DNA of 64,000 nucleotides from an uncultured Pseudomonadales bacterium (GTDB taxonomy: Bacteria; Patescibacteriota; Microgenomatia; UBA1400; UBA12028), in assembly GCA_964635905.1 (NCBI GenBank), contig CAZWPK010000003.1:2459-66458 (forward strand), in the 5' to 3' direction. Both the position numbers and the translations under genes were made by a program. The stretch's first letter is position 1; the number at the start of each line of letters is the position of its first letter. The notes under the pieces are model-generated. The model did no database searches. It was not told the origin of the DNA and worked only from the letters and a program-made list of their open reading frames with translations. This document shows positions 3,865 to 64,000 of this stretch, in pieces.

Positions 3865-4434
3865 TTAATCCTTGCTATATTCTACTTGTCCACCCAACTT
3901 TTTCATCAGATATTTACACCATTCCGATAACCAGCGGACACTATCGTTTACGTTCTTTGACAGTCCCTTTTTCGCATCGGTTTCTCCTAAGGGAAGCACA
4001 TACACCGGTTGGGCGGCAGCAGGAGCAATTGTTGATGCAAGCGCATTGGGATCTGCGATTACAACTTCATCAAGTTTCCCTGGCTGCTCACCACGATTGA
4101 CTTTTTCCATCCAGCTCGCAACTTCTACGGGAATTGGTTCTGTTTCAAAGGAATCACTCCCTGCCATTTCTACAAAGCCAGCAACTTCAGAGGAAATGGG
4201 ACCAAGTTCTTTTCCGCGTGGTGACGAAATTGGAGTAGGTGTAGGAGTAACTGTCGCTGCAGCATCTAAGACTTGTTGGGCTAATGCCGGCGATGGGGCT
4301 ACTTGACTTGTTAAACCATCTGCCACTGGGACTGATGCGATGGTTTGTGCTGGCACCATCGGAGCTGGAACTGGTGAGACGCTCGTAGCGCTAGGTTGCA
4401 CTGGTACTTGGGCAGAAGGATCCATACGGTTCAT
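3865..4434 (-). CDS. Hypothetical protein, Pro/Ala/Val-rich N-terminal half
   Basis: This 189-aa ORF has its ATG at 4434. It lies immediately upstream of the T4CP-like gene, 14 nt away on the same strand. The N-terminus is low-complexity (PVQPSATSVSPVPAPMVPAQ) and the C-terminus is a more ordinary domain. Confidence 0.4.
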   Translation of the reverse strand: MNRMDPSAQVPVQPSATSVSPVPAPMVPAQTIASVPVADGLTSQVAPSPALAQQVLDAAATVTPTPTPISSPRGKELGPISSEVAGFVEMAGSDSFETEPIPVEVASWMEKVNRGEQPGKLDEVVIADPNALASTIAPAAAQPVYVLPLGETDAKKGLSKNVNDSVRWLSEWCKYLMKKLGGQVEYSKD

Positions 4435-16636: not shown

Positions 16637-16656
16637 TAGTGATTACTAACTCATTG

Positions 16657-17841: not shown

Positions 17842-17897
17842 TTTCACTCCAACTCCCTATTTCAACTTCTTAATTGCTTTGCTAGTATTCGCCCAAC

Positions 17898-25623: not shown

Positions 25624-26727
25624 TTAGCGTTTAAAAGGCATGACCACTGTTAAATAGTTTTCTTGGTTTTCGGGTAGCAGGATGGCTGGTTTTAATTCTG
25701 AGTTCATACAAAACTCAACTCTGTCAGTTTTCATGTGTAACAAGGCATCGGTTAAAAACTTTGCATTAAACGAAATCTTTTTTGATTCTGTCGCGTTATA
25801 GGTTGAATCTAGGGTGACTTCATTCTCCCCCATGGTTGCACTTGTGGCTGCAACGGTTAGGTTTTTCCCTTCAAGGGTCATCGAAATGATTGAAGAGCTT
25901 TCTCTAGCGACAACCATGGTGGTTTTTAGGGCGTTTAACAAGTCTTGTCGATCAAGGAACGTTCGAATGAGGAATGAAGAAGGAATAATTTGATTATAGG
26001 GAGGGAAATCTCCTTCAGTCAGTCGAATTAGAATCTGAGTCTCCCCTGCCGCCATTCGTACCTGCTGAAGCTCTTTAGATACTCCAAATTCGACTGTGGC
26101 TGGCTTTGTTCGAGCAAGAGCTCTCAACACTTCTAAAAGGGTTTTTGCGTTGATTAAAACGTTAAATCCTTCATTTTCCATTTTCATCGGATAGTTTGAA
26201 ACAACGAGTCGATACCCGTCGGTTGAAACTATCGAGCACTGATCTTTTTGAAATTCGAAATAGACGGAAGCTAATACTGGACGTGTTTCGTCCAGACTGG
26301 CGGCATAGCCCGTTTGCTCCACAATGTCAAAAAAGTCTGTGGCAGGAAATTCCACTTTACTCGTGTTCAATTGGGGAAACGGTGGAAAGTCTGTAGCAGG
26401 AAAAGTTGGTATTTTTGCTTTAGCTCTAGCCTGTGTCAGACAGAGGTTGCCTTCAATAATCTCGCATTCTAGTGGTCCATGTGGCAACGATGAAATAAAA
26501 TCCGTAAACACTTTAGCTGGAACAACACATTCTCCCGACTGTTCTATTTTCCCTCCAATGCTCGTATGAAATCCTACTCGAAGATCAGTTGAACGAATAA
26601 TTAATTGTCCTTCAGTTGCTGAAAGGTAAATTCCTGAAAGGATAGGTAATTGGGGTTTAGAAGATATAAAACGCGATGCGTCCTGTATAGCTTTTAAGAC
26701 ATTTTCTTGTAATACGGTGAAGTGCAT
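25624..26727 (-). CDS. dnaN: DNA polymerase III beta sliding clamp
   Basis: The start MHFTVLQENVLKAIQDASRFIS...LSGIYLSA is diagnostic and three-domain length fits. The ATG was checked. Confidence 0.9.
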   Translation of the reverse strand: MHFTVLQENVLKAIQDASRFISSKPQLPILSGIYLSATEGQLIIRSTDLRVGFHTSIGGKIEQSGECVVPAKVFTDFISSLPHGPLECEIIEGNLCLTQARAKAKIPTFPATDFPPFPQLNTSKVEFPATDFFDIVEQTGYAASLDETRPVLASVYFEFQKDQCSIVSTDGYRLVVSNYPMKMENEGFNVLINAKTLLEVLRALARTKPATVEFGVSKELQQVRMAAGETQILIRLTEGDFPPYNQIIPSSFLIRTFLDRQDLLNALKTTMVVARESSSIISMTLEGKNLTVAATSATMGENEVTLDSTYNATESKKISFNAKFLTDALLHMKTDRVEFCMNSELKPAILLPENQENYLTVVMPFKR

Positions 26728-27039: not shown

Positions 27040-28473
27040 TTATTTACTACCAGAGATGCTTGCTCGGATTGCAGATAAACTAGTTTGTAGATCTGTTGAA
27101 GTTTCCAGTTTTAACTTTACTTTCTTGACGGCATGCATGATGCTGGTATGGTCTCTTCCACCAAACTCCATCCCCACTTGTACAAGAGAAATTCTCAAAT
27201 CTTCATACAAAATATACATTGCTAAATGACGATAATCGACAAGAGGCCGAGAACGTCGTGCACCTAAAAGCTGTGCGGTAGTGACTTTGAAGTGAGCGGC
27301 AACTGTTTTAATCACTTCTTTTGGTTTAACTGAGAGCTTTGTAATATTGGGAGTCTGTTCTTTGGAGAGAATGGATTTTACTAAGTCCATATTGATCTCT
27401 TTTTTCATCAAGGTATTCTGGCTGTGAAGCTGTGAGATGACTCCTTCAATTTTCCGGGCATTATCTACCATCGAGGCAATTTGCTGAGCACAATCCATTG
27501 GAACAATGACCCCTTTTGCTTCAGACTTGATTAAGACAATCGCTGTGCGGAGTTCAAACGTTGGTTGTTGGATATCGATGATCAGTCCTGCTTCAAACCG
27601 AGAGCGCAACCGGTCTTCTAGAAGCGTAATCTCATGGGGTGGTCTATCTGACGTAATAATAATTTGACCACCAGATTGAGAGACAGCGTTAAACGTATGG
27701 AAAAACTCCTCTTGAACCGCGTTTTTCCCAGCAATAAACTGAATGTCATCAATAAGTAAAACATTCACTTTCCTGTATTTTTCCTTGAATTGGAGTGTTT
27801 TTTTTGTTTGAATAGCGGCAACAATCTCGTTCGTAAACTCTTCACCAGCGCAATACAAAATATTTACTTGAGGATTGTCTTTCAAAATTGCTTGACCCAC
27901 AGACTGCATGAGATGCGTCTTCCCTACTCCTACTCCGCCATATAAAAAGAGAGGATTATAAGCAGTTCCAGGGCTCCTGGAAACCGCTTGAGCGGCTGCG
28001 TATGCCATTTCATTGGTCGTGGAAACTGCGAAATTCTCAAAGTTAAAATCGAGTCGAAGTTTAGCTTTTTGTAAGCTTAATTTAAAAGAATCTACCGTTG
28101 GTGCTGTGGAAAAGAGGGGGGTTGAGCTCTGGATAGGTTGGGAAGATGATTGTGGGGAATGTGTGGATAGAGTTACGGTTGGCTGGGTGGTTTCCTGAGG
28201 TTGAACCGCAGATTGCACTCTAAATTGTAAATCAACCTTCCTCCCAGTGATCCGATCAAGCGTCTCTTTCAAGGTTGCATAAAACCTGCCTTCGATCATT
28301 TGGATATGCATGGCTGTCGGTGCGCTAATCACGGCGATTGCATGGGAATCTCCTACTGCTCTGATTTCTGCAAGACTCGCCTTCTCTATCCACATGTGGA
28401 AATGTTGAGAAGACATGCTGATCTCCAGATCTGAGAGCGATTTTTTCCAAACATCAAACGGAACCATTTCCAT
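27040..28473 (-). CDS. dnaA: Chromosomal replication initiator DnaA
   Basis: The AAA+ Walker A (GGVGVGKTHL) and LLIDDIQF motif are present, with a C-terminal DNA-binding domain. Confidence 0.95.
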   Translation of the reverse strand: MEMVPFDVWKKSLSDLEISMSSQHFHMWIEKASLAEIRAVGDSHAIAVISAPTAMHIQMIEGRFYATLKETLDRITGRKVDLQFRVQSAVQPQETTQPTVTLSTHSPQSSSQPIQSSTPLFSTAPTVDSFKLSLQKAKLRLDFNFENFAVSTTNEMAYAAAQAVSRSPGTAYNPLFLYGGVGVGKTHLMQSVGQAILKDNPQVNILYCAGEEFTNEIVAAIQTKKTLQFKEKYRKVNVLLIDDIQFIAGKNAVQEEFFHTFNAVSQSGGQIIITSDRPPHEITLLEDRLRSRFEAGLIIDIQQPTFELRTAIVLIKSEAKGVIVPMDCAQQIASMVDNARKIEGVISQLHSQNTLMKKEINMDLVKSILSKEQTPNITKLSVKPKEVIKTVAAHFKVTTAQLLGARRSRPLVDYRHLAMYILYEDLRISLVQVGMEFGGRDHTSIMHAVKKVKLKLETSTDLQTSLSAIRASISGSK

Positions 28474-29432: not shown

Positions 29433-30218
29433 ATGGCCTCTATTCAAGAAATTTCTCAAGCAATCCTCATTAATCCTCTTTTTGAATATTTGAAGTTTTT
29501 ATACGGTCAGACCGGCAGTTTTGGCATGGCCATCATCCTTTTAACGGTGTCTATACGGACTGTTTTAGTGCCTTTCACGCTTCCAACCCTGAGGTCCCAA
29601 AAGAAAATGAAGCTGCTAAAGCCTCAAATTGATCAATTGAAAGAAAAATTTAAGAAGGACCCCAAGAAACTACAACAAGCCCAAATGGAATTGTTTAAGG
29701 AACACAACATAAACCCGATTGCAGGTTGTCTCCCCTATATCGTGCAGTTGATTATCATTTTTGCACTCTATAACGTGCTGTCGCACTTTGTTTCCCGAGC
29801 TTCCTCTGAGGGACTTACAATAAACACGTGGTTTTTGGGATGGGATTTAGCTCATCCAGATCGTTTTTATATCATTCCAGTCTTGGCTGCCCTGACCCAA
29901 TTTGTTCTCTCACTCATGCTTCTGCCTGGGATTGAAAAACATGACTTAGTTCCAAACAACAGTAAAAAAGTGAAAGTTCAAACCGAGAATAAGCGAGAGA
30001 CTAATTCTCAACAGATGGCAGAAACAATGCAAAAACAAATGGTTTTTATGATGCCAATCATGACTGGACTTTTTGCACTTCGATTCCCTGCTGGACTCGG
30101 ACTGTATTGGATAGTCACCACAATCTTTAGTATTGCTCAACAATGGGTGATTTCAGGCCCAGGAGGTCTCAAAAATATCGTTTCCCAAGTTAAAAGTAGA
30201 CTGCCACTACAACAATAA
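29433..30218 (+). CDS. yidC: Membrane protein insertase YidC (short form)
   Basis: The protein has multi-TM 60-kDa-IMP-like topology, sits in the rnpA-yidD-yidC-jag context and has a basic C-tail. Confidence 0.85.
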   Translation: MASIQEISQAILINPLFEYLKFLYGQTGSFGMAIILLTVSIRTVLVPFTLPTLRSQKKMKLLKPQIDQLKEKFKKDPKKLQQAQMELFKEHNINPIAGCLPYIVQLIIIFALYNVLSHFVSRASSEGLTINTWFLGWDLAHPDRFYIIPVLAALTQFVLSLMLLPGIEKHDLVPNNSKKVKVQTENKRETNSQQMAETMQKQMVFMMPIMTGLFALRFPAGLGLYWIVTTIFSIAQQWVISGPGGLKNIVSQVKSRLPLQQ

Positions 30219-38938: not shown

Positions 38939-40591
38939 TTATTGTGGTCCACGCAAATACACAGCTCTCCACGGAACATAGGTGGTTTTAAAGGTTTGTT
39001 CTTTCTTCTCTCCAGATGGATACGTCACCACATAGTCAAAGGAAGTGTTTAATCCAGGGGCTGCATATTCCACTTGTTTAATTTGACCAGGTTTGAGTGT
39101 GGGATCGTCTTGATAGACGGCGGCTGGAGCTGGTCGAGCACCCCATTGTTTATAATTTACGATTTCTGCTTTCCTCCCATCAGATTTACCATACAGCTCC
39201 ACATACATATATGTTTTTTTCGCATTGGCTACCGCGTTGATCAGAATTGGGGAATCAGTGTCGTTAACGAATCGCAAATCCGGATGTGGCGCATACACTG
39301 TGGCATCAAATCCAGGTTTACTGTTTTGCTCATAGTAGCTCACACGATACGAGTGACCACGCCGCTCGGTAATGGGAAGACCAGCATTCAGGATGGCACG
39401 AAAGAGAGTGGAGGAGACTTGGCAAACACCACCACCATCTCCGAGAACTGTTTGTCCTTCCTTGATGACATACGCTGGTTTAAAGCCAGTTTTGGCAGAC
39501 ACATCCCCTAAGAAGGCATTAAAGGAAAAGGTTTCTCCCGGTTGAATCAGCTTTGCGTGGATTTTTGAGGTGGTGAGTCCCACGTTATGGATACGATTCG
39601 CAATGGAGTGGGAGTAGGTACTTTCTCCAAAACCGATCTTTTCTTCGATCCCAATCGTGTTGGTTGAGGCAAGTGCGGTTTTTGGAGCCTGCGTCGTCAA
39701 TACCAGCGCAATCGGTTTTGGTTTTTCTCCCTGCTCAATTTTCTCTAGCGCTTCTTGAAGTAGTTTTTTGTTTTCGTTGGAATCCACACCGATTCCATCT
39801 TTTGGCGCAACGAATTTGGTCACAATACCATTGTCAATTGATAATTCTGGTTCGATAGGTACTGTACCAATATCTTTGGTGATGGAATCAAAAATTGTTT
39901 CCATGGCGCTGGTGGAATATCCGGTAGGAAGGGTAAGCAAGGAGAAGAGTTCAGACTGCGACAAACTTCGCGTGTAGTTTTTTGCTTGAAGAACTACTTT
40001 TGCACCCACAAACAGCTTTGCTCTATTCTCGGATGCGCTGAGCTGGTCCGGTGAAAGAACAGTTCCTGTTTCTAGAGTGACAATGGACGCGCTCGAGCTG
40101 GCATTTAGTTTGAGTGCTGCGATTATTTGTTGTGTTGCCTTGCGGTTGACTTCAACACCACGCTCACCTGGAGTAATGGTGTAGATCGGGGATTTTTTTT
40201 GATCCACCGTGATAGCGGGTGCAATCGCTGGTGTATCAATTGTGCGTGCAATTTGATCGATCCAACTTAAGACTTTTACTGTATCCAAGGGGTTATTTGG
40301 CAACGTTTCATCTGCAGAGAAAAGCAACTGTTTGATGATATCCACACCGTGTCGACTGGGCAGAAATTTGGTAATGGAGTCCTCCGAGGTTAGTGAAGCA
40401 CTCGGCGTAGCAAATTGTTGGTCTTGATAGTTAAGTGTGACCGTGGTTGGAAGAGTGGAGAGATCGTAATTTGCCTGACTGGATTGTTGACTGGCGGTAA
40501 ATGCGCCATCCGCAAAGGAACCGATGACAAACAACATCCCGATGATGATCACAACTGAAAGGAGAATGGTGAGGGGTTTTTGGCGTTGCAT
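38939..40591 (-). CDS. VanW-family protein with N-terminal signal anchor
   Basis: The VanW-like core is LIQPGETFSFNAFLGDVSAKTGF...GGGVCQVSSTLFRAILNAGLPITERRGHSYRVSYY. The likely start is the ATG at 40591 (MQRQKPLTILLSVVIIIGMLFV). The track gives a longer ORF, to 40768. Confidence 0.7.
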   Translation of the reverse strand: MQRQKPLTILLSVVIIIGMLFVIGSFADGAFTASQQSSQANYDLSTLPTTVTLNYQDQQFATPSASLTSEDSITKFLPSRHGVDIIKQLLFSADETLPNNPLDTVKVLSWIDQIARTIDTPAIAPAITVDQKKSPIYTITPGERGVEVNRKATQQIIAALKLNASSSASIVTLETGTVLSPDQLSASENRAKLFVGAKVVLQAKNYTRSLSQSELFSLLTLPTGYSTSAMETIFDSITKDIGTVPIEPELSIDNGIVTKFVAPKDGIGVDSNENKKLLQEALEKIEQGEKPKPIALVLTTQAPKTALASTNTIGIEEKIGFGESTYSHSIANRIHNVGLTTSKIHAKLIQPGETFSFNAFLGDVSAKTGFKPAYVIKEGQTVLGDGGGVCQVSSTLFRAILNAGLPITERRGHSYRVSYYEQNSKPGFDATVYAPHPDLRFVNDTDSPILINAVANAKKTYMYVELYGKSDGRKAEIVNYKQWGARPAPAAVYQDDPTLKPGQIKQVEYAAPGLNTSFDYVVTYPSGEKKEQTFKTTYVPWRAVYLRGPQ

Positions 40592-40664
40592 GCAGTACCA
40601 CGTTACTTCTGGTAGTGTACAATAGTACCAAGTTATTGTACCTGGTAACAATCCCACACTCACT

Positions 40665-42089
40665 ATGGAAAACGTGCCGACTTCTTCAACCCCTCCTGTA
40701 ACTGAATCTGTAGCGGAAGCAGTACCCGCTTTTGAGCCCCAAAAGCCTCCTCGCCCGTCATTACCCACCTTGCCGATTAAAAAGATAGTTATGGTTGTCG
40801 GAGTTTTGATTGTCCTCTTGCTTGTCGGGGTCGGAGCGATGTTTGCTCTGCGGATGGTGCAACAACGTCAGACGGCGCAGACCGATTCCAATCGTCAGAT
40901 CTCCTTAACTTACTGGGGACTTTGGGAAACCAACGATGCCTTAACGTCCGTTATCAAAGAATTTGAAAATCAAAACCCTGGGGTAACGATTCAATACTCT
41001 CCCCAATCTGCAAAAGATTATAACGAACGACTCCAAAGTGCCTGTGCACGATCACAGTGTCCCGATATCTTTCGTTTCCATTCAACCTGGACTGCTTCTT
41101 ATACCCAGAAGGAGTTATTAGCCCCAATTCCCGCAAAAGTCCTTTCCGCTAGTGCGTTTAACGAGCGCTACTATCCCTTCATGAGCACTGATCTGAAGAC
41201 CGCGCAGGGATATATGGGAATGCCGGTAATGTTAGATGGATTGGGTCTTTACGTGAACAAACGCATGCTGACTTCTTCAGGGAAGTCGGTCCCTGTAACC
41301 TGGGACGAGTTGCGCACCTTAGCTCGAGAGCTCACGGTACGCAATCAAGATGGTGCCCTTGAACGCGCAGGTATTTCTTTGGGAAGTGCAGAAAACGTGG
41401 ACCACTTTTCCGACATTCTTGCCATCTTAATTCTCCAAAATGGAGGGAACCCTGGAAAGCCGACGGAAGGAACTTTAGTGAGTGATGCGTTGACCTTTTA
41501 TACTCAGTTCTTCAAAGAAGATAAAGTGTGGGACGAAACCCTTCCCAATTCTACGTATGCCTTTGCCATTGAAAAATCAGCGATGTTGATAGCTCCTTCT
41601 TGGAGATCGTATGAAATTCGACAAATCAATCCGAATTTCGAATTTGAAATCTATCCTATCCCGCAGCTACCCGGGGATCCGGTAAACTGGGCAACGTACT
41701 GGGTAGAAGGGGTGTCTAAACAGTCGAAGGAACAAGAAACTGCTTGGAAATTCTTGGAATACCTTTCGCGTACGGAGACTCTTGAAAAACTTCATACCGG
41801 CATGAATGCCCAGCGCTTGCCTGCTGAGATTTATCCGCGTAAGGATATGGCAGACAAATTAATCAATGATAAATATATGGGTGCCTATGTCCGTCAGGCA
41901 TCAACAGCGAAGAGCTGGTATTTAGCTTCTCGAACCTTTGACAAAGGGATCAATGATGAACTGATTGCTTCCTACAAAGAGGCAATTACCTCTGTCAATA
42001 AAGGGTATGGGAGCCGACTAGATGACGTGATTAAGGCATTGGACGCAAGCGTAAGTACGGTACTGCAAAAGTACGGTATCCGTCCGTAA
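40665..42089 (+). CDS. ABC transporter extracellular solute-binding protein (family 1, sugar-type), membrane-anchored
   Basis: The protein has an N-terminal TM and the region LTYWGLWETNDALTSVIKEFENQNPGVTIQY. Confidence 0.65.
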   Translation: MENVPTSSTPPVTESVAEAVPAFEPQKPPRPSLPTLPIKKIVMVVGVLIVLLLVGVGAMFALRMVQQRQTAQTDSNRQISLTYWGLWETNDALTSVIKEFENQNPGVTIQYSPQSAKDYNERLQSACARSQCPDIFRFHSTWTASYTQKELLAPIPAKVLSASAFNERYYPFMSTDLKTAQGYMGMPVMLDGLGLYVNKRMLTSSGKSVPVTWDELRTLARELTVRNQDGALERAGISLGSAENVDHFSDILAILILQNGGNPGKPTEGTLVSDALTFYTQFFKEDKVWDETLPNSTYAFAIEKSAMLIAPSWRSYEIRQINPNFEFEIYPIPQLPGDPVNWATYWVEGVSKQSKEQETAWKFLEYLSRTETLEKLHTGMNAQRLPAEIYPRKDMADKLINDKYMGAYVRQASTAKSWYLASRTFDKGINDELIASYKEAITSVNKGYGSRLDDVIKALDASVSTVLQKYGIRP

Positions 42090-54243: not shown

Positions 54244-54315
54244 GCGCCCATAGTTTAATGGATAGAATAGGAGTTTGCGGAACTTCTGATCCAAGTTCGA
54301 TTCTTGGTGGGCGCA
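54244..54315 (+). tRNA. tRNA-Arg (anticodon GCG, tentative)
   Basis: Acceptor GCGCCCA pairs with TGGGCGC, discriminator A. The T-arm is CCAAG-TTCGATT-CTTGG. The anticodon stem GGAGT pairs with ACTTC around the loop TTGCGGA. Confidence 0.7.
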
Positions 54316-54332
54316 CCCTTGGATTTTTTAAA

Positions 54333-54422
54333 GGAGGGGTGCCTCGAGCGGCTTATGGGCCAGGTTTCGAAAACCTTGGGGGGCGTAACAGCTCCACGTG
54401 GGTTCGAATCCCACCCCCTCCG
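54333..54422 (+). tRNA. tRNA-Ser (anticodon CGA), type II
   Basis: Acceptor GGAGGGG pairs with CCCCTCC, discriminator G. There is a long variable arm and a T-arm GTGGG-TTCGAAT-CCCAC. The anticodon loop is TTCGAAA. The gene is 90 nt. Confidence 0.7.
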
Positions 54423-54469
54423 CAACTTTCATTTATATATTCAAAAAGTAGAACGTGACGAAAAACTAT

Positions 54470-56179
54470 ATGGCACGACGTGTTGAAGAAAACCGGTGGA
54501 ATCAGTTTCTACGCACTATTTTGCCAGAATCTGGAACACCTCAGGAAGTCGTCACTGATGACAATATTCTTGAGCAGTGGAGGAAGATTGTTCCCCAAAA
54601 CAGATTTGGTGAGGTCTCAGCAACGCTTGGTCGTGATACATTTCGCTCAGAATTTGAACGGGCGCTTCAAGATGGTACTCTAGAGGAATTTTTAATAGAA
54701 CAACTCTCAAAACCAAATCCATATACAGGTATCTATGTTGTGCGCTCAGCTCCTGAAGTATTAACTTCGGCTGCTGATAAAGATGTTCAAGCTCTGCATC
54801 AGCCAACTTTTTTACACGAGCTTTTAACAAAACTTTCAACATTTGAGGATGAACTGCAGAAGAGTGGTATGCCATCTATTTTTATAGAAGAATATCAGCA
54901 TAAAGCTGCGGCAATTCGGCAATTTATACAGGCAGCTATCTCCATCGGTACCCCAGAGTTTACACAGTACCAACAGTCTGTGAAAGCTTGGGAAAAGTTA
55001 TTAAATGTGAAAGACCAATCTTCATCGAGAGAATTAAGATTACCTTATGAAGAGCAATCGTTACGGATTTTGCAGGCAAACAAAGAATCTAAGCCCGTCT
55101 ATACCTCTGTGACACAAGTGTTAGAAGAAATCTGGCATTTGAGTGATTCTGAAAAAGAAGCAATAGAGTTTGATACATTAACCCCCGAATCAACAAAACT
55201 ATCAGTAGCGCAAGGCAAAGCTCTTTTTAGAAATATTCTCAATCGAATTGGGTTAACAGACTGGGAGGTAGAAGAAACGTCCAGCTCTGCAATCAACGTA
55301 ACTGCGCAGGCTAAAAAGATTGCTTTCCCAAGATCGCGAGTGCTTACTGCGGACAGTGCTGCTTTTGTTGTTGCGCACGAATTTATTCACGTAATCCGTG
55401 GTGCAAATGGAGCAAAACAGGATTGTGCATTGTTGGAATCTGGGATGGAAGACTATTTACCTACAGAAGAAGGATTAGCAACATTATCCGAGATGATCAT
55501 GGGACAGCCATTTGGTCATCGAAGACAAGTGCTTTTTGCAGCACGATATTATGCAGTGGCTCAAGCCCTAAAGGTTGTAAAGGATAGTGATTCACATACC
55601 TTCAAGGCCAGACATTCCATTCAGGAAATCTATGATGAGTTAGTTGGTTTTCAGGTTGATCCTGAAGACGCTGCTGATCTTGTTTGGCGGATTTTTCGTG
55701 GAACTTCGCTTACAAGACAAGTAGTGAATACTGGAGTAACCTACAGTGATGGTACTTCGGTGATGGTCGCTGAGACATTTACCAAAGACGCTGTCTACTT
55801 TATCGGTCAAATGATGATGTTTGATACTGTTAAAGCGGTGATGCCAGTTCTCAAAGAAGAAATGGCAAAAAAAATTATCACGTCATCCGAGGATTTTTCA
55901 GATCGAGTACTTGCAAGGATTGGTCGTGCCATTGCTTTGACGGTGACCGATCAGAATGATCAAATACCATCCCAAGTGTTAAGCAAAGAAATGTATGATG
56001 AGTTTACTAAACTCGGAAGAGCAGCCCTCTTATCAATTCTGCAATATTATTTGCCTGGCAAAATGACCTTAGAAAGTTTAAGCGATCCCGAGAGTGGCTG
56101 GCAACCAACTATTCATCGAGAAAATTTAATTGAGTATTCTAGAATCTTCCAACCTCACACCGAAAACCTTCGAGAATAG
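54470..56179 (+). CDS. Hypothetical HExxH protein resembling the DUF1704 / QEGLA-motif putative carboxypeptidase family
   Basis: VVAHEFIHVIRG supplies the HExxH and TEEGLATLSEM is QEGLA-like. The ATG is at 54470. The track start is a GTG at 54455. Confidence 0.45.
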   Translation: MARRVEENRWNQFLRTILPESGTPQEVVTDDNILEQWRKIVPQNRFGEVSATLGRDTFRSEFERALQDGTLEEFLIEQLSKPNPYTGIYVVRSAPEVLTSAADKDVQALHQPTFLHELLTKLSTFEDELQKSGMPSIFIEEYQHKAAAIRQFIQAAISIGTPEFTQYQQSVKAWEKLLNVKDQSSSRELRLPYEEQSLRILQANKESKPVYTSVTQVLEEIWHLSDSEKEAIEFDTLTPESTKLSVAQGKALFRNILNRIGLTDWEVEETSSSAINVTAQAKKIAFPRSRVLTADSAAFVVAHEFIHVIRGANGAKQDCALLESGMEDYLPTEEGLATLSEMIMGQPFGHRRQVLFAARYYAVAQALKVVKDSDSHTFKARHSIQEIYDELVGFQVDPEDAADLVWRIFRGTSLTRQVVNTGVTYSDGTSVMVAETFTKDAVYFIGQMMMFDTVKAVMPVLKEEMAKKIITSSEDFSDRVLARIGRAIALTVTDQNDQIPSQVLSKEMYDEFTKLGRAALLSILQYYLPGKMTLESLSDPESGWQPTIHRENLIEYSRIFQPHTENLRE

Positions 56180-58743: not shown

Positions 58744-60684
58744 TTAGCTTTGTGGTGGGGTTGGAGGTACCAGTTCACTCGGGTTATATCCCGTTTCAGC
58801 AACTTCCTCAGCTTGTTCCTGCGCCTGTGATTCTTGCTGTGCAAACGCTTCTTGGCGCTTGCGTAGTAGCTCTTGGGGATCCGTGGTGATGAGTGCATGT
58901 TCTTTCTCACTGGCAATGACACGAATGGCAACGTGGTTTTGTCCGGCAAAGAACAGCCCTTCTCCAACATCTGCTGCCATGAGTAACCGACGTTCACCCT
59001 CTGAAAGGAAGAACACTTCCGTAAGACGGGGAATCGACGCTGAGGACTGTTTCATCAAGAACTGTATGGAGGAGTTGGTAACGATGGGTTTTCCATATTC
59101 AGAGACCAAAAAGTCTTCCACGTCCTGGGTGATCGTTGTGATACCCAAGTAGTATTTTCGTGCGCGTTTGGCCAAGGAGTGCAAAAAGGAAGCGCTGTCC
59201 GGATGCTTCATGAAGTACCACGCCTCATCCACAATCAAGATACGCTTTTTTAAGGTCTTCTTGATACGTGTCCAGATAAAATCCAAGATCATGAACATTG
59301 CGATTGGGCGCAACTCGTCTTCGAGTTCCTTGACGGAGAAGACGGTGAAGTGGTTGGTCAAATCAAAGTTTGATTTACGATCAAAGATACCTCGAAAGGA
59401 ACCTTTTACAAACTTTTCGAGTCTAGCCGCTAGATTAGCAGCATCGGGTGTTTCCATGCCGATTAACGCCTTATACAGGTCTTCTAGTAGCGGAGGCTCA
59501 TTGCTTTGGGTCGCAGGATCCGGAGTAATGCCTTTTGATTTATATGCAGCCACCAGTGCTTGATCTAATACGGCATCCTCGGTGGGAGATAAACTTCCAA
59601 TCATGACACGGAGGAGAGAATGCAAGTTGATAATCTTAGTGCCTAATTCATTTTGACCTTCTTCATAGACAGAAGACAAATCAAAGGGATTGATTTTGAC
59701 ATTAGAATTGAAACTAAAGTTAACATATTCTCCACCAACTGCATTACACAAGTCTTCATATTCATGCTCAGGGTCTAGAATCAAAATGTCGGCTCCAAAC
59801 ATGAGTTGTCGGTAGGCTTCTAACTTCACAAAATAGGATTTTCCTGCACCGGACTTTGCAAACACCACCATGTTGGCATTCTCCATCGAGAAGCGATCAA
59901 AAATGACCAAGGAATCATTGTGTTCATTAATGCCGTACACAATGCCTTGTTCTTGGGTCAACTCAGAGGATGTAAAAGGGAACGTCGTTGCCAGAGAAGT
60001 TGTGTCCATGTTACGGACATAACTTAGCTTGTCTACTCCAGTGGGAAGGGTGGTTTTGTACCCTTCCTCCATTTGGAGTGTGGCGCTTTTACTAATGATT
60101 AAGAGTGATCCTAACGTCGATTGAACTTGTTTGGTGACTCGATCGAGTTCTTCTAGGGAGTGGGCCGAGATCGTAATGTAGAGCCCGAATTGGTAAAAGC
60201 GCTCGGCGCCTTTAGCCAGTTGTTCCTGGATTAATCGAGCATCCTCCAATTTGATTTCCGTATCGATGTTTCCAATTTTTCCTTGTTTTAAATCCGATGA
60301 TAGTTCCGCTTCCATTTCTGTAATCTTGCGACGTAGATCTTGCAAAATTTTGGCACTGTCGACAGGGAAGATGTACATGGAAATATCCATGGAATGGGGG
60401 AAATTGATTAAGGGGGAGAGCCAGTTTGCCGGAACCGAACGTGGATATCCAGAGATGAACAGTGTACGAGTATAGGTGGCATTAATGCGTTGGTAGGTAA
60501 AGTCAACTTCGATAGCTTCTGGCGCAATGATATCTAAGATACTCACTAGCCCGGATGAGAATTTTGCAATTTCTGCGTTCAATTCTTCTGCCTGTGAGGG
60601 AACTGGGGTTGCTGGGGTGCCAGTGGATCCAGTTGGGGTTGTAGGAGGTGATTTCTTTAATAACGAAAATAAATTAAGTGCCAT
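58744..60684 (-). CDS. VirB4/TraC/PrgJ-like type IV secretion ATPase
   Basis: Walker A is VVFAKSGAGKSYF and Walker B is RILIVDEAWYF. The VirB4-like N-domain reads DIIAPEAIEVDFTYQRINATYTRTLFISGYP. The N- and C-terminal tails are Pro/Thr-rich. Confidence 0.8.
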   Translation of the reverse strand: MALNLFSLLKKSPPTTPTGSTGTPATPVPSQAEELNAEIAKFSSGLVSILDIIAPEAIEVDFTYQRINATYTRTLFISGYPRSVPANWLSPLINFPHSMDISMYIFPVDSAKILQDLRRKITEMEAELSSDLKQGKIGNIDTEIKLEDARLIQEQLAKGAERFYQFGLYITISAHSLEELDRVTKQVQSTLGSLLIISKSATLQMEEGYKTTLPTGVDKLSYVRNMDTTSLATTFPFTSSELTQEQGIVYGINEHNDSLVIFDRFSMENANMVVFAKSGAGKSYFVKLEAYRQLMFGADILILDPEHEYEDLCNAVGGEYVNFSFNSNVKINPFDLSSVYEEGQNELGTKIINLHSLLRVMIGSLSPTEDAVLDQALVAAYKSKGITPDPATQSNEPPLLEDLYKALIGMETPDAANLAARLEKFVKGSFRGIFDRKSNFDLTNHFTVFSVKELEDELRPIAMFMILDFIWTRIKKTLKKRILIVDEAWYFMKHPDSASFLHSLAKRARKYYLGITTITQDVEDFLVSEYGKPIVTNSSIQFLMKQSSASIPRLTEVFFLSEGERRLLMAADVGEGLFFAGQNHVAIRVIASEKEHALITTDPQELLRKRQEAFAQQESQAQEQAEEVAETGYNPSELVPPTPPQS

Positions 60685-60692
60685 ACAGGTCC

Positions 60693-61856
60693 TTACACGG
60701 TATCTTTGAGTACGGTTACATCTGGAGTGGGTTGGTTAAGAGCTGCTGGCTGATTAGGATCCAACGTACTGATCTCTTCTTGAATAGAAGCTGACGTGGT
60801 GGTTGCTTGTGGAGTGGTTCCCACGGATACCGTTTCTAGGGCGGGTAATTGGGGAGGAGTCAAACGAATGGAGGGAAGCTCGGAAAATTCCTGAGGCAAC
60901 GACACTACAACCTCTTCTTTCTCTGGGAGTGCTGGTGTGGGCAGACTTGGTGTTGCTTCGGGAGTAAGCGGCGCTGGTGGTTGTAGATTTTCTGTCGCCA
61001 CTGGGGTAGGCAATGGTGTTGGGATGGGTTGTACAGGAGGAGTTTCAACCACAGGTGTGGTCTCTGGTGCAGGTACAGTGGTAGGTGTTTGTACTGGCTT
61101 GGATACCGCGCTAACTGGCAACGGGACAGCGGTTTCTGCTGCAAACTTCGCCTGTAGCACAGGGAGTGGGGCGATATCGGCTTCAACCAATGGAGAAGAA
61201 TACTCGGAAGGGTTGGTTACATGCATCCCATCGGAGGAATCAGGATTGTACATGGTATAGAACAGTTGAATTAATTCTTGCGTAGAGAGCTGACGAAGCG
61301 ACAATCCAATCCGAGCAAACTGATGGACTAAGTGGTCTCGTCGGGGGGCAAGGTTGGTGAGGGCTTTTTCTAATACGGTGCCTTTGTCCAGAGTTTCCGG
61401 TGCTTTTTTATTCATCCCAGGGATGAAAGTGGCGCCAGAGATGATTCCTCCCTCAATGGCGGTATACGTGATCACGATATAGAATTTCTTCTCTAACACG
61501 TTGCGCTCTTGTACGAGCTCTTCTACAAACTGTCGATAGTCTTTGATGTTGCGTTTATTGACGGGGTTATACGCCTTGAGTTCGGCTTGATGCAAGAGTT
61601 CCAAATACGACGTGACATCTTTTCGCTGAGATCGAATCACGATTTCAATTGGGAACGATAGCGAGTTGAGAAGGGCGGCATAGGCATAGATTGCAGCATC
61701 CTGTTCTTCTTCGGAGTAAAGGTCAAAATTGATTGCGGTTGAATTTAAGACCATGGAGACCGCGCCATCACGAAGCAGAAGTACATCGTTGGTGATATCA
61801 AACAGTTCTAGATATTTTTGCGTCGTTGATTGGAGGGCATTGGATTGGTTGATCAT
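60693..61856 (-). CDS. T4SS-associated hypothetical protein with a ~160-aa Pro/Thr/Val-rich C-terminal region
   Basis: The ~230-aa N-domain reads LLLRDGAVSMVLNSTAINFDLYSEEEQDAAIYAYAALLNSLSFPIEIVIRSQRKD. Its start overlaps the upstream gene's stop in an ATGA arrangement. Confidence 0.5.
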   Translation of the reverse strand: MINQSNALQSTTQKYLELFDITNDVLLLRDGAVSMVLNSTAINFDLYSEEEQDAAIYAYAALLNSLSFPIEIVIRSQRKDVTSYLELLHQAELKAYNPVNKRNIKDYRQFVEELVQERNVLEKKFYIVITYTAIEGGIISGATFIPGMNKKAPETLDKGTVLEKALTNLAPRRDHLVHQFARIGLSLRQLSTQELIQLFYTMYNPDSSDGMHVTNPSEYSSPLVEADIAPLPVLQAKFAAETAVPLPVSAVSKPVQTPTTVPAPETTPVVETPPVQPIPTPLPTPVATENLQPPAPLTPEATPSLPTPALPEKEEVVVSLPQEFSELPSIRLTPPQLPALETVSVGTTPQATTTSASIQEEISTLDPNQPAALNQPTPDVTVLKDTV

Positions 61857-62977
61857 GATGCTTGAATGAGGATAGGTTCTACTACTTGATTATTCAGGAC
61901 TAAAGATTGGTTGTCAAAAAGACTTCCATCTTTCTCGACACTAATCATGTATTCGCCCTTATCTAAGGGGGTGACAACTGCAAACTGACCTAAGGTATTG
62001 GTTTTTAAGGCACGTACGGGGGTGTGATCGGCAGCTTTGGAGATCGTTACAATGGCATTTTCCAGAATTTTTCCATCCGAAGAAACAACCATCCCAACCA
62101 CCATGTTAGGAACGGTAGGTTTACTGGGGAAAGGCAAGGAACTTAGAGTTTGAACTGGTTTTAATGTTTGACCCGGGAAAGAATTTGATACCGTTGGTTT
62201 TACCACAGTAAATTCTCCAGATAGTGCAGGGTTTGAGGCAGAAATTGGAGAGGCAGGAAGGGAAATTTCCGTATGTGTTTTGTAGCCAACGGGTTGAATT
62301 TGGGGAACCTGCACATCCGTTGTGCCGACACTATCGTTGTGTTCTTTGGAAATGACGGATTCACTAGGAACTGCGACCTCGTTATCAGATTCTAAAATAC
62401 GAGCAGACACAGGAAGCGTATTCTCGGTTTTTGTAGGCAGCGGTATTTTCATGGCTTCTTGAATGGGTACTGTTGTTGGTTGCGGGGTAGGTGCGATGGA
62501 GGGATTTTCAAATAATGCCAAAATTGCTTGGGCTTTAAGATCATCCGCATCCGGTTGGGAAGACATTGAGGCAGAGGGAAGTGTGGTTAAAAATTCTTTG
62601 ACTCGTGAGTCTCGCAAGGGGCGATAATCTACTTTAGGCGTAGTGTCTAAATTTGTCGGGACTTTGTACTCAAAGACATCTGGAATGGTTTGTGTCTTTT
62701 TCCAAAAGAACATGGTTGGCTGATAGATCGAGCGAATGAAGGCTAGAAACCAGCGATCCAATGGACGTCCTTCCAGAGGAACAAAGGCAAGCGCTAACCC
62801 AGTAAGACCAACAATCGCCATGAGGGGATACTTAATAAACACGGGAAGGTTTGTCATGTTAATGACAACCGCTAAGATGACACCACCCGCAATTTCCATA
62901 AATTGCTTGAGTGTCATCTGACCGATCAGATGAAATTCATATCCCGTGACGTTTTGGGGTACTGGATGTTCTTGCAT
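61853..62977 (-). CDS. PrgI/VirB3-like membrane protein with a long low-complexity C-terminal extension
   Basis: The first ~95 aa have PrgI-like two-TM topology (LIGQMTLKQFMEIAGGVILAVV...LMAIVGLTGLALAFVPLEGRPLDRWFLAFI). The remaining ~280 aa are Pro/Ser/Thr/Val-rich and end in a small beta-rich domain. Confidence 0.55.
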   Translation of the reverse strand: MQEHPVPQNVTGYEFHLIGQMTLKQFMEIAGGVILAVVINMTNLPVFIKYPLMAIVGLTGLALAFVPLEGRPLDRWFLAFIRSIYQPTMFFWKKTQTIPDVFEYKVPTNLDTTPKVDYRPLRDSRVKEFLTTLPSASMSSQPDADDLKAQAILALFENPSIAPTPQPTTVPIQEAMKIPLPTKTENTLPVSARILESDNEVAVPSESVISKEHNDSVGTTDVQVPQIQPVGYKTHTEISLPASPISASNPALSGEFTVVKPTVSNSFPGQTLKPVQTLSSLPFPSKPTVPNMVVGMVVSSDGKILENAIVTISKAADHTPVRALKTNTLGQFAVVTPLDKGEYMISVEKDGSLFDNQSLVLNNQVVEPILIQAS

Positions 62978-63061
62978 GGGAAAATGTTGGCTATGATGAC
63001 TTCTTTATGATACCAGATGAGTGGTAGACAGCCAATCCAGTAGATTTAAAAAGAGTGTCGT

Positions 63062-63634
63062 TTACTCTTGTAAACCAAACGGATGGGATTTCATTTCCAT
63101 TTCGGTTAAGTTTTTCCCAATTGTGGTGTCAAACTGTGCCTGCGTCATTGGGGGGAAGTACCAGATTGAGAAAACGGCGGTGTCGTTTCCAATGATTGCA
63201 GTTCCCTTTGACGGATACACGTCCATTGAATAGGTGATTCCCCATTCTTCGGAATATCTAACAGCTTCGGGCTTACCTAATTTCTCTTTCAGCGTGGTAA
63301 AAGTTCCACTCTCGGAGGCCGAAATAAAGCGCTCGATCACTTGAGCTCGGTCGTTTTCTAGGACAACAACGTTGGGATGCCGGGCAAATACTGACGGGTA
63401 ATCATATTTTTGAGCAGAGCCGACTTGAGAAATTTGCAGAGGGACACCCATGGCTGCAATTACTGCTTCCGAGTCACTTCGACCGGGCTCAATAGCATTC
63501 CAGGTATTAAATTCCGTGGTTGGTGGCAGTGATGATTCCGGCGTAAAAAAACGAAAAACAATTGTCAGAATCAAAACTCCAACTAAAACAAGGATGTACC
63601 AACGACGTTTGAGAAGCAACAATAGTTTATTCAT
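63062..63634 (-). CDS. Membrane-anchored hypothetical protein (190 aa)
   Basis: A signal anchor (WYILVLVGVLILTIVF) precedes an extracytoplasmic domain. The start lies 1 nt after the upstream gene's stop. Confidence 0.4.
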   Translation of the reverse strand: MNKLLLLLKRRWYILVLVGVLILTIVFRFFTPESSLPPTTEFNTWNAIEPGRSDSEAVIAAMGVPLQISQVGSAQKYDYPSVFARHPNVVVLENDRAQVIERFISASESGTFTTLKEKLGKPEAVRYSEEWGITYSMDVYPSKGTAIIGNDTAVFSIWYFPPMTQAQFDTTIGKNLTEMEMKSHPFGLQE

Positions 63635-63635
63635 A

Positions 63636-64000
63636 TTATAAAGAGTTGGGTGGTGGATTCCCTCCAGCTAGATTATCGCGAATCCATTGATAGCGTAATG
63701 GGAAAGTTGAACTCATATCCGAGACACTACAGCCAGGCTTGGTCAGTTGAGGATAGTATTTATGCACAAAAAAGACAGCAATGGATTCGGCAAAGTCTTC
63801 TCGATCAGGAATTCCACTGCTGCCCAGTGAGTATGTACAAATTTGGCGCTCGGCGCCAACTGCCTGCAAAAATTGCTGCAGGATTGAACCTCGGGTTTGA
63901 ATCTGATGGCTAAGCTCATGGACAATAGTTCGTCGTGAATCAGTGATACTCGCGGCTACTGCTAAGTTATACATTGCAATGTTGTTCCCTGAACTGGAAC
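63636..64000 (-). CDS. Putative zinc metallopeptidase domain protein, HExxH (DUF4157-like), partial (its 5' end lies beyond the window)
   Basis: SRRTIVHELSHQIQ resembles the DUF4157 motif GRRLLAHELAHVVQQ. The reading frame stays open upstream of the internal Met at 63974 as far as the window edge. Confidence 0.4.
   Translation of the reverse strand, partial: SSSGNNIAMYNLAVAASITDSRRTIVHELSHQIQTRGSILQQFLQAVGAERQICTYSLGSSGIPDREDFAESIAVFFVHKYYPQLTKPGCSVSDMSSTFPLRYQWIRDNLAGGNPPPNSL

Follow-up and report, generated by a model that had tools for sequence, protein, structure and literature searches.

A probable core operon of the Patescibacteria-clade type IV secretion system with an exchangeable giant-protein and partner cassette

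The closest described relatives of the locus analysed here belong to the Patescibacteria-clade type IV secretion system (T4SS), a vertically inherited monoderm machine derived from the MPF-FATA class. As described in Wang 2023 (PMC10633639; SEML1_0006-0019 of Southlakia epibionticum) and surveyed in Quinonero-Coronel 2025 (PMC12102498), the system is chromosomal, its CPR-type VirB4 adjoins TrsD-like and PrgI/VirB3-like genes, no relaxase gene adjoins it, the coupling-protein homologue is distant, and VirB6 and VirB8 are reported as undetectable in Microgenomatia; the same component set, without a relaxase and in the origin-proximal part of the chromosome, is what PMC12102498 describes. PMC10633639 reports the T4SS as essential for growth on the host in Saccharibacteria (Southlakia), and essentiality for Microgenomatia would be an extrapolation from a Saccharimonadia species with a differently organised locus. 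As candidates for what is transported, the literature names proteins sent out to the host cell or host macromolecules taken in. The conjugative staphylococcal plasmids of the pGO1/pSK41 type (trsC-trsD-trsE-trsF-trsG, an MPF-FATA subclass) encode a small membrane protein, TrsD and a ~670-aa VirB4 in that order, with TrsD made as its own polypeptide and related to the N-terminal part of VirB4, and include a cell-wall hydrolase in the operon. The closest VirB4 outside the CPR, at 37.6% identity and likewise short (621 aa), lies in a T4SS-like locus on an 898-kb replicon of Pontibacillus sp. ALD_SL1 (L090), where a 274-aa protein encoded upstream matches the CPR TrsD profile (E=1e-37), a 116-aa PrgI-like protein is found further upstream, and a 1050-aa M23 protein adjoins.

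The window, meaning the whole 64-kb stretch of DNA analysed, ends in five tightly packed, co-directional minus-strand open reading frames (58744-64000), whose coordinates bear out the arrangement with ATGA and 1-nt junctions given by an earlier sequence-only reading. The operon runs from a giant protein through a membrane-anchored partner, a PrgI/VirB3-like protein and a TrsD-like protein to VirB4. Counted from the VirB4 side, its junctions are 8 nt of spacing, an overlap of 4 nt (ATGA), and gaps of 84 nt and 1 nt. We put the probability that this is the chromosomal core operon of a Patescibacteria-clade T4SS at roughly three in four. Such operons have already been published, and the copy in the window is an ordinary member except for its swappable giant and partner pair. 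The presence of VirB4 together with a PrgI/VirB3-like protein upholds the earlier proposal of a T4SS-like module in a CPR genome, in agreement with PMC12102498, PMC10633639 and PMC11665869.

The last gene (58744-60684, minus strand) encodes a 646-aa ATPase with visible Walker A (FAKSGAGKS) and Walker B (RILIVDEAW) motifs. It passes the 325-bit cut-off of NCBIfam NF045971 (CD1110 VirB4; 385 bits, E=6.7e-115), matches PDB 4ag5, a solved VirB4, at E=8e-48, and is also hit by the Pfam models P-loop_TraG, AAA_10 and DUF87. The initial assignment to the VirB4 class is thus sound, and the suspicion that the protein might instead score as FtsK or HerA found no support. Its closest homologues, 70-100% identical, are nearly all from Patescibacteria, including Woesebacteria, Cerribacteria and Saccharimonadia. 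The protein spans positions 171-734 of the 752 in NF045971 and, judged by this coverage, is a short form without roughly the first 170 positions of the long CD1110-type VirB4.

The 387-aa protein encoded next to it (60693-61856, minus strand) had been described as unknown, a label that we replace with TrsD/TraC-like partner of VirB4. Residues 25-133 match positions 15-123 of the CD1110 VirB4 profile (E=5e-5) and residues 33-133 match positions 129-237 of the Mbov_0397 VirB4 profile (E=1.9e-7). The Pfam TraC-like family PF26593 is matched by the identical protein in L006 and L007 and by the orthologues in L002 and L004. The TrsD-like protein and the ATPase match different parts of the CD1110 profile, which complement each other without overlap, and the conserved globular domain (residues 1-220) corresponds to the N-terminal piece that the short VirB4 is without; no similarity was detected between the 387-aa protein and the patescibacterial VirB4 itself (hhalign probability 0.4%). 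The remaining residues (221-387) form a poorly conserved tail that includes the most proline-rich 60-residue stretch of the window (33% Pro). The link to staphylococcal TrsD is made solely and weakly by the NCBIfam model NF041427 (E=1.3e-4), and the CPR TrsD profile misses staphylococcal TrsD in a local search.

The third core protein (61853-62977, minus strand, 374 aa) carries a PrgI domain in residues 1-100, with a match to Pfam PF12666 over residues 5-87 (34.0 bits against a gathering score of 27) and a two-helix hydrophobic hairpin at residues 21-64 by hydropathy, as the earlier call of a PrgI-like, two-helix N-terminus had it. That call also included a Pro/Thr-rich extension of ~280 aa; the extension is present, with a poorly conserved, proline-containing linker at residues 161-280 (at most 17% Pro per 60 residues), but it is not uniform, and residues 281-374 form a conserved CarboxypepD_reg-like beta-sandwich. 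The match to PF13620 (E=1.4e-5) is under that family's cut-off, and both PF12666 and PF13620 were matched by all 23 family members scanned. Positive charges after the second helix of the hairpin would place the beta-sandwich in the cytoplasm; domains of this type are usually extracytoplasmic, which is at odds with that placement.

In 60 of 63 species loci the PrgI and TrsD genes immediately precede VirB4. Profiles recognised all five genes in 45 of 49 related species loci, and the other 4 have the same layout with divergent versions, so the block is indeed conserved as a unit among relatives. The architecture had been called non-canonical, which is right in comparison with classical T4SSs but not among the related species sampled, where it is the standard layout. 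The core order PrgI-TrsD-VirB4 also equals trsC-trsD-trsE of a staphylococcal pGO1-like plasmid. Between the genome of the window and L002, DNA identity is 82%, while identity reaches 98% for the VirB4 protein, 98% for the PrgI domain and 99% for the TrsD domain; the linkers stand at 64-87% and a neighbouring acyltransferase at 79%. Conservation of the globular domains in the three core proteins far exceeds that of their neighbours, and by these identities the three proteins are under strong purifying selection.

No polytopic VirB6-like gene adjoins the operon by a hydropathy scan, and no relaxase domain was found among the ~31 window proteins scanned with Pfam (of 71 called ORFs, the other ~40 being mostly small), in line with the earlier remark that neither is visible. 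As relaxase and VirB6 are absent beside the module, it is probably not a conjugation machine. In the window we found neither a VirB6-like polytopic protein nor one resembling VirB8, and no array of VirB2-like pilins, which leaves the channel itself unaccounted for in the portion of the genome inspected (the 64-kb window plus 4.4 kb). The window thereby differs from described Patescibacteria-clade loci in showing no VirB2-like array; such arrays adjoin the operon in 5 related loci. The Pontibacillus cluster differs in having a 9-helix, 779-aa VirB6-like protein and pilin-like genes of its own, a PrgI protein without an extension, no BLIP-like partner, and an M23 giant that is encoded downstream and anchored N-terminally. 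The staphylococcal systems, unlike the operon described here, are plasmid-borne and conjugative with a MOBQ relaxase, their TrsC has 135 aa and no C-terminal domain, and their hydrolase is a 358-aa CHAP protein encoded downstream.

The fifth frame (63636-64000, minus strand; ORF listed as 63636-63974) is open at the window edge and holds the C-terminal 121 codons of a far larger gene. Contig L006, 100% identical to window positions 59269-64000 (4732 nt), reaches 4.4 kb beyond and carries the full gene at L006:1163-4774, encoding 1203 aa. The HExxH motif noted at first is real (HELSH, followed downstream by EDFAE), but it belongs to the tail of a membrane-spanning protein and not to a complete small gene. 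The full protein is predicted to consist of ~620 soluble residues, a Gly/Ala-rich hydrophobic stretch at ~628-830, a beta-rich domain and the zincin domain, and in every giant of more than 1000 aa a hydrophobic region, mostly rich in Gly/Ala, likewise comes late and precedes a C-terminal domain. Across 17 homologues, the zincin residues H, E, H, E and E never vary. Among solved structures, M34 Pro-Pro endopeptidase and lethal-factor-like proteins come nearest, with a weak E=0.0045, and Pfam ATLF is matched by 5 of 17 family members; both the zincin assignment and its M34/PPEP-like character are weak. It matched no peptidoglycan-specific family. The DUF4157-like label proposed for it does not stand, since PF13699 reached E=0.028 only when the 207-aa C-terminal segment was scanned alone and was matched in no other family member.

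The partner gene (63062-63634, minus strand) encodes 190 aa, anchored by a single N-terminal transmembrane helix. Its ectodomain has two repeats, each a helix plus four strands, in a DUF4309/BLIP-like fold, and the protein is not VirB8-like. All 16 HExxH-only giants pair with this partner type and all 42 M23 giants with a ~334-aa type, making 58 of 58 classifiable loci concordant and none discordant, and the only feature common to the two partner types is the transmembrane anchor motif. On the VirB4 tree the cassette changes type at least 12 times. Where it has been replaced, the boundaries are clean: 4.46 kb of DNA on one side and 4.97 kb on the other do not align, and the flanks have 82-86% identity. 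Two genomes with 98% identical VirB4 proteins differ completely in the cassette, at 26% identity for the giants and 14% for the partners. The giant protein and its partner behave as an exchangeable two-gene cassette that is swapped as a unit among relatives. In the available portions of PMC10633639 and PMC12102498, we found neither the cassette, nor the covariation, nor the fusion of PrgI to a beta-sandwich.

Under the preferred reading, a T4SS core operon, homologous T4SSs suggest that a VirB4 hexamer would be held at the cytoplasmic membrane face by the PrgI hairpin and the TrsD domain and would power assembly and transport through an envelope-spanning channel. From its anatomy, the giant protein may cross the membrane by its Gly/Ala-rich segment and present the beta-domain and the peptidase (a zincin in the window genome, M23 in many relatives) outside the cell, the number of membrane passes and hence the side of the C-terminus being read from simple hydropathy alone. 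It would then take the wall-opening role that VirB1-type hydrolases have elsewhere, and possibly fill part of the missing VirB6 role. Like VirB1-type and PrgK/TraG-type hydrolases, it would be a membrane-tethered, putatively wall-active enzyme of a monoderm T4SS operon, and its relatives share M23 (LytM-like) domains with PrgK. In contrast to those hydrolases, the giants reach 1050-1680 aa, begin with a long region that looks cytoplasmic and carry a Gly/Ala-rich membrane segment in the middle, the domain in the window is a zincin of uncertain family instead of a lytic transglycosylase, CHAP or M23 domain, and each giant is paired with a type-matched partner. Southlakia has separate peptidase and lysozyme genes downstream, whereas the wall enzyme here is upstream and part of a giant membrane protein. 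Because ectodomain type matches peptidase type, the partner probably binds its cognate peptidase and controls or neutralises it; an inhibitor, a chaperone and a structural adaptor would each fit the covariation.

The same data tentatively allow another view, which we consider a minority possibility, in which giant and partner are not structural parts but an effector and its immunity protein, the peptidase attacking the host envelope or competitors while the BLIP-like partner shields the producer's own wall. Cassette exchange would then retune host range. The perfect covariation, the repeated switches, the clean-edged replacement and the low identities beside a nearly invariant VirB4 all fit this, as do the structural neighbours of the partner, which include beta-lactamase inhibitor proteins and type VI and Rhs immunity proteins, and the two class A PBPs encoded in the window, by which the producer makes its own peptidoglycan. 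Nevertheless, the whole giant protein is replaced and not its C-terminal domain alone, and the giants have no conserved N-terminal trafficking module of the polymorphic-toxin kind. The long membrane-embedded segment speaks against release or translocation, and within one cassette type giant and partner (72-87% identity) diverge no faster than ordinary neighbouring genes, of which an acyltransferase has 78%. BLIP-like folds are general binding modules, and for YjgB/DUF4309, the best structural match of the partner, we know of no function.

Somewhat less probable still is that the module imports host DNA, RNA or nucleotides across the epibiont envelope, for which the ComB T4SS of Helicobacter and the archaeal Ced system would be the models for DNA. 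The literature raises uptake as a candidate, given that Patescibacteria have no nucleotide synthesis and Southlakia can do without ComEC (PMC11665869), and a 2026 preprint (10.64898/2026.06.21.733656) links host-RNA feeding in a cultured representative of the Patescibacteria (Minisyncoccota) to possible T4SS pili. The lack of a relaxase in the scanned genes agrees with this, as does the distance of 55 kb to the only coupling-protein homologue of the window, a VirD4-like protein at 1517-3850. The ATPase does match CedB (E=1.5e-12) and CedD (E=6.7e-6) among NCBIfam models, but these weak matches are far under the family cut-offs (47 bits against 700) and so reflect only the common VirB4-like ATPase fold; moreover, the five genes contain no nucleic-acid-binding or nuclease domain, and the direction of transport is not readable from sequence.

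As for the chromosomal setting of the proposed T4SS core operon, dnaA and dnaN lie ~30 kb away, housekeeping genes flank it in the same order in relatives, its GC content equals that of the rest of the window, and no integrase was found among the window genes scanned; by these comparisons the operon is chromosomal and vertically inherited. That these genes are the transfer machinery of an integrated conjugative element, whether intact or decayed, is very improbable, since the CD1110-type VirB4 (as in clostridial and enterococcal conjugative elements), the trsC-trsD-trsE-like gene order and the VirD4-like homologue are outweighed by the syntenic flanks, the uniform GC content, the lack of relaxase and integrase in the scanned genes, the rarity of transfer between classes in the published phylogeny (PMC12102498), and the recurrence of the operon in species after species with a VirB4 better conserved than its neighbours, the reverse of what decay or mobility would produce.

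The one intergenic gap of appreciable size holds a promoter-like site (63007-63035, minus strand; TTGGCT, 17 nt, then TATCAT with a preceding TG), which lies 30 nt upstream of where the PrgI-like gene starts. The site is possibly an internal promoter of the conserved three-gene core, and is weak evidence because such sites occur in the region at chance level (8 observed against 7.7 expected). Its -10 part lies within the stretch alignable to L002, downstream of the cassette boundary.

The block at 58744-64000 consists of five minus-strand genes, which in transcription order encode the C-terminal end of a giant protein (63636-63974; listed at 112 aa, with 121 codons up to the window edge), an anchored partner protein (63062-63634; 190 aa), a PrgI/VirB3-like protein (61853-62977; 374 aa), a TrsD-like protein (60693-61856; 387 aa), and a VirB4 ATPase (58744-60684; 646 aa). 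The first two genes are separated by 1 nt and the second and third by 84 nt, the third and fourth share a 4-nt ATGA overlap, and 8 nt lie between the fourth and fifth; the GC content of the operon is that of the rest of the window. The sequence-only reading had interpreted this block as a type IV secretion system (T4SS) module, and that interpretation was right: the module is real, with VirB4 and PrgI passing their profile cut-offs and the block conserved.

The ATPase was matched by the NCBIfam model NF045971 (VirB4-like CD1110 equivalog) at 385 bits against a cut-off of 325 (E=6.7e-115) and by Pfam P-loop_TraG and AAA_10, and a PDB search retrieved the solved Thermoanaerobacter VirB4 (4ag5, E=8e-48). 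Its Walker A motif (GAGKS, approximately residues 279-283) and Walker B motif (DEAW, approximately residues 486-489) are both invariant in 12 homologues. The alternative of an FtsK/HerA ATPase is excluded, as no FtsK/SpoIIIE match was obtained and alignment to the HerA central domain is confined to residues 272-337, around the P-loop. Thousands of very close homologues were found, the best 120 being 70-100% identical; the named records among these 120 are almost all Patescibacteria, also known as CPR (Woesebacteria, Cerribacteria, Paceibacteria, and Saccharimonadia), and the closest named record among the matches listed is a Woesebacteria genome at 96% identity.

The alignment of the ATPase to the CD1110 profile begins only at position 171 of 752, and the protein is therefore a short VirB4. 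The polypeptide does not contain the full-length N-terminal domain, with Pfam CagE_TrbE_VirB scoring 20.1 bits, just below its cut-off of 21. The missing N-terminal part is encoded by the upstream TrsD-like gene, which lies between the VirB3-like gene and virB4 and is related to the VirB4 N-terminus by profile match: residues 25-133 of its product match positions 15-123 of the CD1110 VirB4 profile, and residues 33-133 match positions 129-237 of a mycoplasma ICE VirB4 profile. We considered whether the TrsD-like protein might be a paralogue of the ATPase’s own N-terminal region, and rejected this because the protein has no similarity to patescibacterial VirB4 (profile of 23 family members); the two genes thus cover complementary parts of a long VirB4. 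The match to the TrsD/TraD family itself is weak (NF041427, 21.9 bits against a cut-off of 200, E=1.3e-4), and Pfam PF26593, “TraC-like”, is recorded for the identical protein on the window genome’s own locus record (L006) and on L007, as well as for the orthologues on the relatives’ loci L002 and L004. Conservation of the TrsD-like protein is confined to residues 1-220, the remainder being a variable Pro-rich tail that includes the most Pro-rich stretch of the window. PDB searches with TrsD as a single sequence and as a profile returned nothing, and a PHROGs search returned one weak terminase match (E=1.7e-4) that is probably spurious. Poorly conserved Pro-rich or acidic disordered tails are found on the VirB4, TrsD-like, and PrgI-like proteins alike, and TrsD and VirB4, at least, lack both a signal peptide and a membrane segment.

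The N-terminus of the 374-aa protein bears out its PrgI-like label, passing the Pfam PrgI profile (PF12666, 34.0 bits against a gathering score of 27) and carrying a two-helix membrane hairpin with hydrophobic segments at residues 21-39 and 46-64. Each of the 23 relatives scanned matched PrgI with E<=0.01, the best value being E=4.7e-11; the length of the protein is well outside the approximately 90-130 aa of the PrgI family. The remainder had been described as a Pro/Thr-rich extension, and this stands only in part: residues 161-280 form a poorly conserved linker, and residues 281-374 form a conserved domain that matches the beta-sandwich family CarboxypepD_reg, below the cut-off in the window protein. 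As a CarboxypepD_reg-like domain was also found in 23 of the 23 relatives scanned (best E=2.6e-8), the fusion of PrgI to a beta-sandwich is a family-wide trait. With regard to the side of the membrane on which the beta-sandwich lies, a cytoplasmic location is predicted from the hairpin and the positive charges after it, and the type of domain suggests the outside. A PDB search with the PrgI profile returned nothing useful.

The HExxH protein had been taken for a gene of its own, and is instead the C-terminal end of a 1203-aa protein. The frame meets no stop codon before the window edge, and the full gene is present on L006, which is 100% identical to window positions 59269-64000 and runs 4.4 kb beyond the edge; a divergently transcribed gene for a tRNA-binding-domain protein precedes the giant gene there. 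The giant protein begins with approximately 620 residues that lack a hydrophobic segment, followed by a Gly/Ala-rich uncharged stretch (approximately 628-830), a beta-rich region, and the zincin domain. All giants longer than 1000 aa share such a late hydrophobic segment, mostly Gly/Ala-rich, and a PHROGs search with the Gly-rich segment retrieved one unnamed family. In the zincin domain, the H, E, and H of the HExxH motif and the two Glu residues of a downstream E-x-F-A-E (ExxAE) motif are invariant in 17 homologues. Among solved structures, the zincin profile comes closest to the M34 Pro-Pro endopeptidase and lethal-factor-like domains, at a weak E=0.0045 with the motifs aligned to those of PPEP-1, and Pfam ATLF is matched by 5 of 17 zincin members (best E=0.0081). 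The earlier assignment to DUF4157 (now eCIS_core, PF13699) did not hold up: the initial Pfam scans gave no hit, the 207-aa C-terminal segment taken alone from L006 reached only E=0.028 and 15 bits (cut-off 22), and none of the other members was matched.

A single-sequence search with the 190-aa partner found three close relatives, and a profile found approximately 1100 representatives at 50% identity, the best 150 of which are 147-227 aa long. In a confident AlphaFold2 model built with 16 diverse sequences (pLDDT 81.8), a membrane helix precedes two helix-plus-four-strand repeats, and the best matches in a fold search were DUF4309 and BLIP-like folds. The partner was also considered as the missing VirB8-like scaffold, and this was rejected since the model has no NTF2-like fold and VirB8, TcpC, and PrgL are absent from the fold-match lists. 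Likewise, the suggestion that the 190-aa and HExxH frames are frameshifted halves of one gene, made because L002 has a single 334-aa gene at that position, was discarded, as the DNA is unrelated and L006 has two intact genes.

For conservation among relatives, one genome per species was scanned, giving 80 loci, and iterated profile searches were run on their reading frames. The order of giant protein (1050-1680 aa), anchored partner, PrgI-like, TrsD-like, and VirB4 is kept almost everywhere. In 60 of the 63 loci with enough DNA, the PrgI and TrsD genes immediately precede VirB4, and all five genes were found in 45 of 49, the remaining four having the same layout with versions missed by the profiles. 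The doubt attached to the sequence-only reading, that the block might not be conserved as a unit in relatives, therefore falls away. Between strains, identity is 96-98% for VirB4, 95-98% for the PrgI domain, and 96-99% for the TrsD domain, much above that of the surroundings. At the DNA level, window positions 58744-62977 are approximately 82% identical to L002, with a VirB4 protein identity of 98%.

The giant protein and its partner do not follow this pattern. L002, whose flanking DNA is 82-86% identical to that of the window genome, has 4.97 kb between these flanks where the window genome has 4.46 kb, and the two stretches do not align; the boundary lies approximately 40 nt upstream of the PrgI start. 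Within its 4.97-kb stretch, L002 encodes a giant of 1268 aa that carries an M23 domain, along with a 334-aa partner, and between the two genomes the giants are 26% identical overall and the partners 14%. Zincin-only giants pair with the approximately 190-aa partner type (16 loci) and M23 giants with the approximately 334-aa type (42 loci), both with no exceptions. The approximately 334-aa type had no significant Pfam or PDB match (best DUF4901, E=0.022, 2 of 22 members), and the two partner types share only a membrane-anchor motif (hhalign probability 93.6% over 30 columns). On a rough neighbour-joining VirB4 tree of 61 taxa, the type of cassette, meaning giant plus partner, changes at least 12 times, which is supported by two sister pairs that differ in type. 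Rapid point-mutational divergence of these two genes was rejected as the cause: within one type, giant and partner are 72-87% identical between strains, like ordinary neighbours (78% for the adjacent acyltransferase), and replacement by recombination therefore accounts for the differences. The arrangement is like that of toxin/immunity pairs in having a variable C-terminal enzyme domain and an adjoining type-matched small protein (16 and 42 loci concordant, 0 discordant), and unlike it in that there is no conserved N-terminal trafficking region, the N-terminal regions of the giants being barely alignable across the family.

We therefore offer, tentatively and with a probability of roughly three in ten, the reading that the first two genes may be an exchangeable specificity cassette, often swapped by recombination within a conserved T4SS operon, which would set which host envelope is breached, with the partner acting as self-protection or as a switch. 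In composition, the cassette would possibly be a membrane-spanning giant with an outward-facing zincin or M23 peptidase together with a cognate anchored binding protein, either BLIP/DUF4309-like or of the unrelated approximately 334-aa type. By comparison with solved and studied T4SSs, VirB4 would be a membrane-docked hexameric motor, and VirB3 and the VirB4 N-terminal region would make the membrane contact. The anatomy of the giant protein suggests that it may span the membrane and expose its peptidase, which could then open the wall, whether the producer’s own or the host’s; the partner, whose conserved anchor would keep it in the same complex, may bind the matched peptidase. Protein export and the import of host nucleic acid are both candidates for what is transported and in which direction. 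Should the cassette track host identity, it would serve as a marker by which host range could be read from the sequences of uncultured epibionts.

Wang et al. (2023) reported an unusual T4SS in the Saccharibacteria epibiont Southlakia epibionticum, whose epibiotic growth requires it; the system is most like Gram-positive conjugation systems, and neither coupling nor relaxase proteins are recognisable in it (PMC10633639). The survey of Quinonero-Coronel et al. (2025) found VirB4 in 2,417 of 3,035 genomes, mostly in one clade nested in MPF-FATA, with TrsD as the most abundant partner and few relaxases; it also reports PrgI/VirB3 homologues, VirB2-like pilin arrays, and proximity to dnaA, with detectable VirB6 scarce in Microgenomatia and VirB8 scarce throughout the phylum (PMC12102498). 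A 2024 perspective presents the Patescibacteria system as the first T4SS shown to be essential for its carrier, with a role that is “completely unknown” (PMC11665869), and a 2025 review calls it a newcomer to the T4SS superfamily. The operon described here is chromosomal, its TrsD and VirB3 homologues adjoin virB4, and no relaxase was found nearby among the window ORFs scanned, as in the Patescibacteria clade; it is a typical member of a published system, and so the finding itself is a rediscovery. The locus is thus no new kind of system and is rather a clean, compact five-gene version from Microgenomatia, where VirB6 and VirB8 escaped detection. What is added is the corrected gene assignments and the cassette observation, a testable handle on specificity; the details that can be tested are the split of VirB4 into TrsD and a short ATPase, the constant fusion of the VirB3 homologue to a beta-sandwich, and the exchange of the cassette between near-identical machines. 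No description of the giant/partner cassette, of its covariation, or of the PrgI beta-sandwich was found by term searches or in the portions covered of PMC10633639 and PMC12102498.

Outside Patescibacteria, the same split is known from pGO1-type plasmids, and a staphylococcal plasmid has the genes in the same order, with a small membrane protein followed by trsD and a 670-aa VirB4. The closest non-CPR relative of the operon is found in Pontibacillus sp. ALD_SL1 (locus L090, NZ_CP062975.1 349328-365067), which has the best plasmid-borne VirB4, 37.6% identical to the window ATPase as against the 70-100% of CPR homologues. This locus encodes a 116-aa PrgI-like protein, a 274-aa protein matching the CPR TrsD profile (E=1e-37), a short VirB4, and a 1050-aa M23 protein, along with pilin-like genes and a 9-helix 779-aa protein. 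It follows that the split VirB4 and a giant M23 protein either predate the CPR clade or are shared more widely than it. The Pontibacillus replicon is an 898-kb, non-mobilizable element of a Bacillota species, and the operon relative lies next to flagellar genes.

Conjugative MPF-FATA systems have a relaxase, a coupling protein, and VirB6 in or close to the gene cluster, and the window operon differs from them: the window ORFs scanned yielded no relaxase domain, no polytopic VirB6-like gene adjoins the operon, and the sole coupling-protein homologue found is 55 kb away. This VirD4-like protein of 777 aa (1517-3850, minus strand) matches both Pfam TrwB_AAD_bind, a T4SS coupling protein family (37.9 bits; cut-off 20.5), and DUF87; its neighbours have no relaxase domain, and the adjoining gene encodes a 189-aa protein with a Pro-rich N-terminus (3865-4434). 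A profile built from small-gene arrays in two relatives’ loci (L054 and L063) found no VirB2-like pilin genes or arrays among the window genes. Such arrays, of two to eight small genes, occur in L054:482-2711 and L063:172-2860, and also in L065, L066, and L081; in the two arrays inspected the genes encode 114-187 aa with 2-3 hydrophobic segments each, the L054 and L063 arrays being positioned divergently upstream of the giant gene. Arrays of this type fit the VirB2-like pilin arrays reported for Patescibacteria.

The window also contains dnaN (25624-26727), dnaA (27040-28473), and yidC (29433-30218), and its cumulative GC skew falls to a minimum at approximately 33 kb, to the right of these genes, and rises thereafter; this suggests that the chromosomal replication origin of a Microgenomatia-type CPR bacterium falls inside the window. 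Approximately 30 kb to the right of dnaN/dnaA/yidC is the T4SS operon, which, being on the minus strand, would be head-on to replication. The genes at 14153-20351 and 38939-40768 include those for two class A penicillin-binding proteins, a family 18 glycosyl hydrolase, and a VanW-like protein, so the organism builds and remodels its own peptidoglycan, which bears on any self-protection role of the partner protein. A gene for a 574-aa MATCAP-like metallopeptidase (54455-56179, plus strand) adjoins a tRNA-Arg/tRNA-Ser pair (54244-54423), and looks like a strain-specific insertion because it is missing at that position in three close relatives’ loci (L002, L091, and L092). We would like to note that, among loci L010-L087, many record titles read “uncultured Pseudomonadales bacterium” and one “Limisphaerales” despite a Patescibacteria-type operon, and these look like mislabels.
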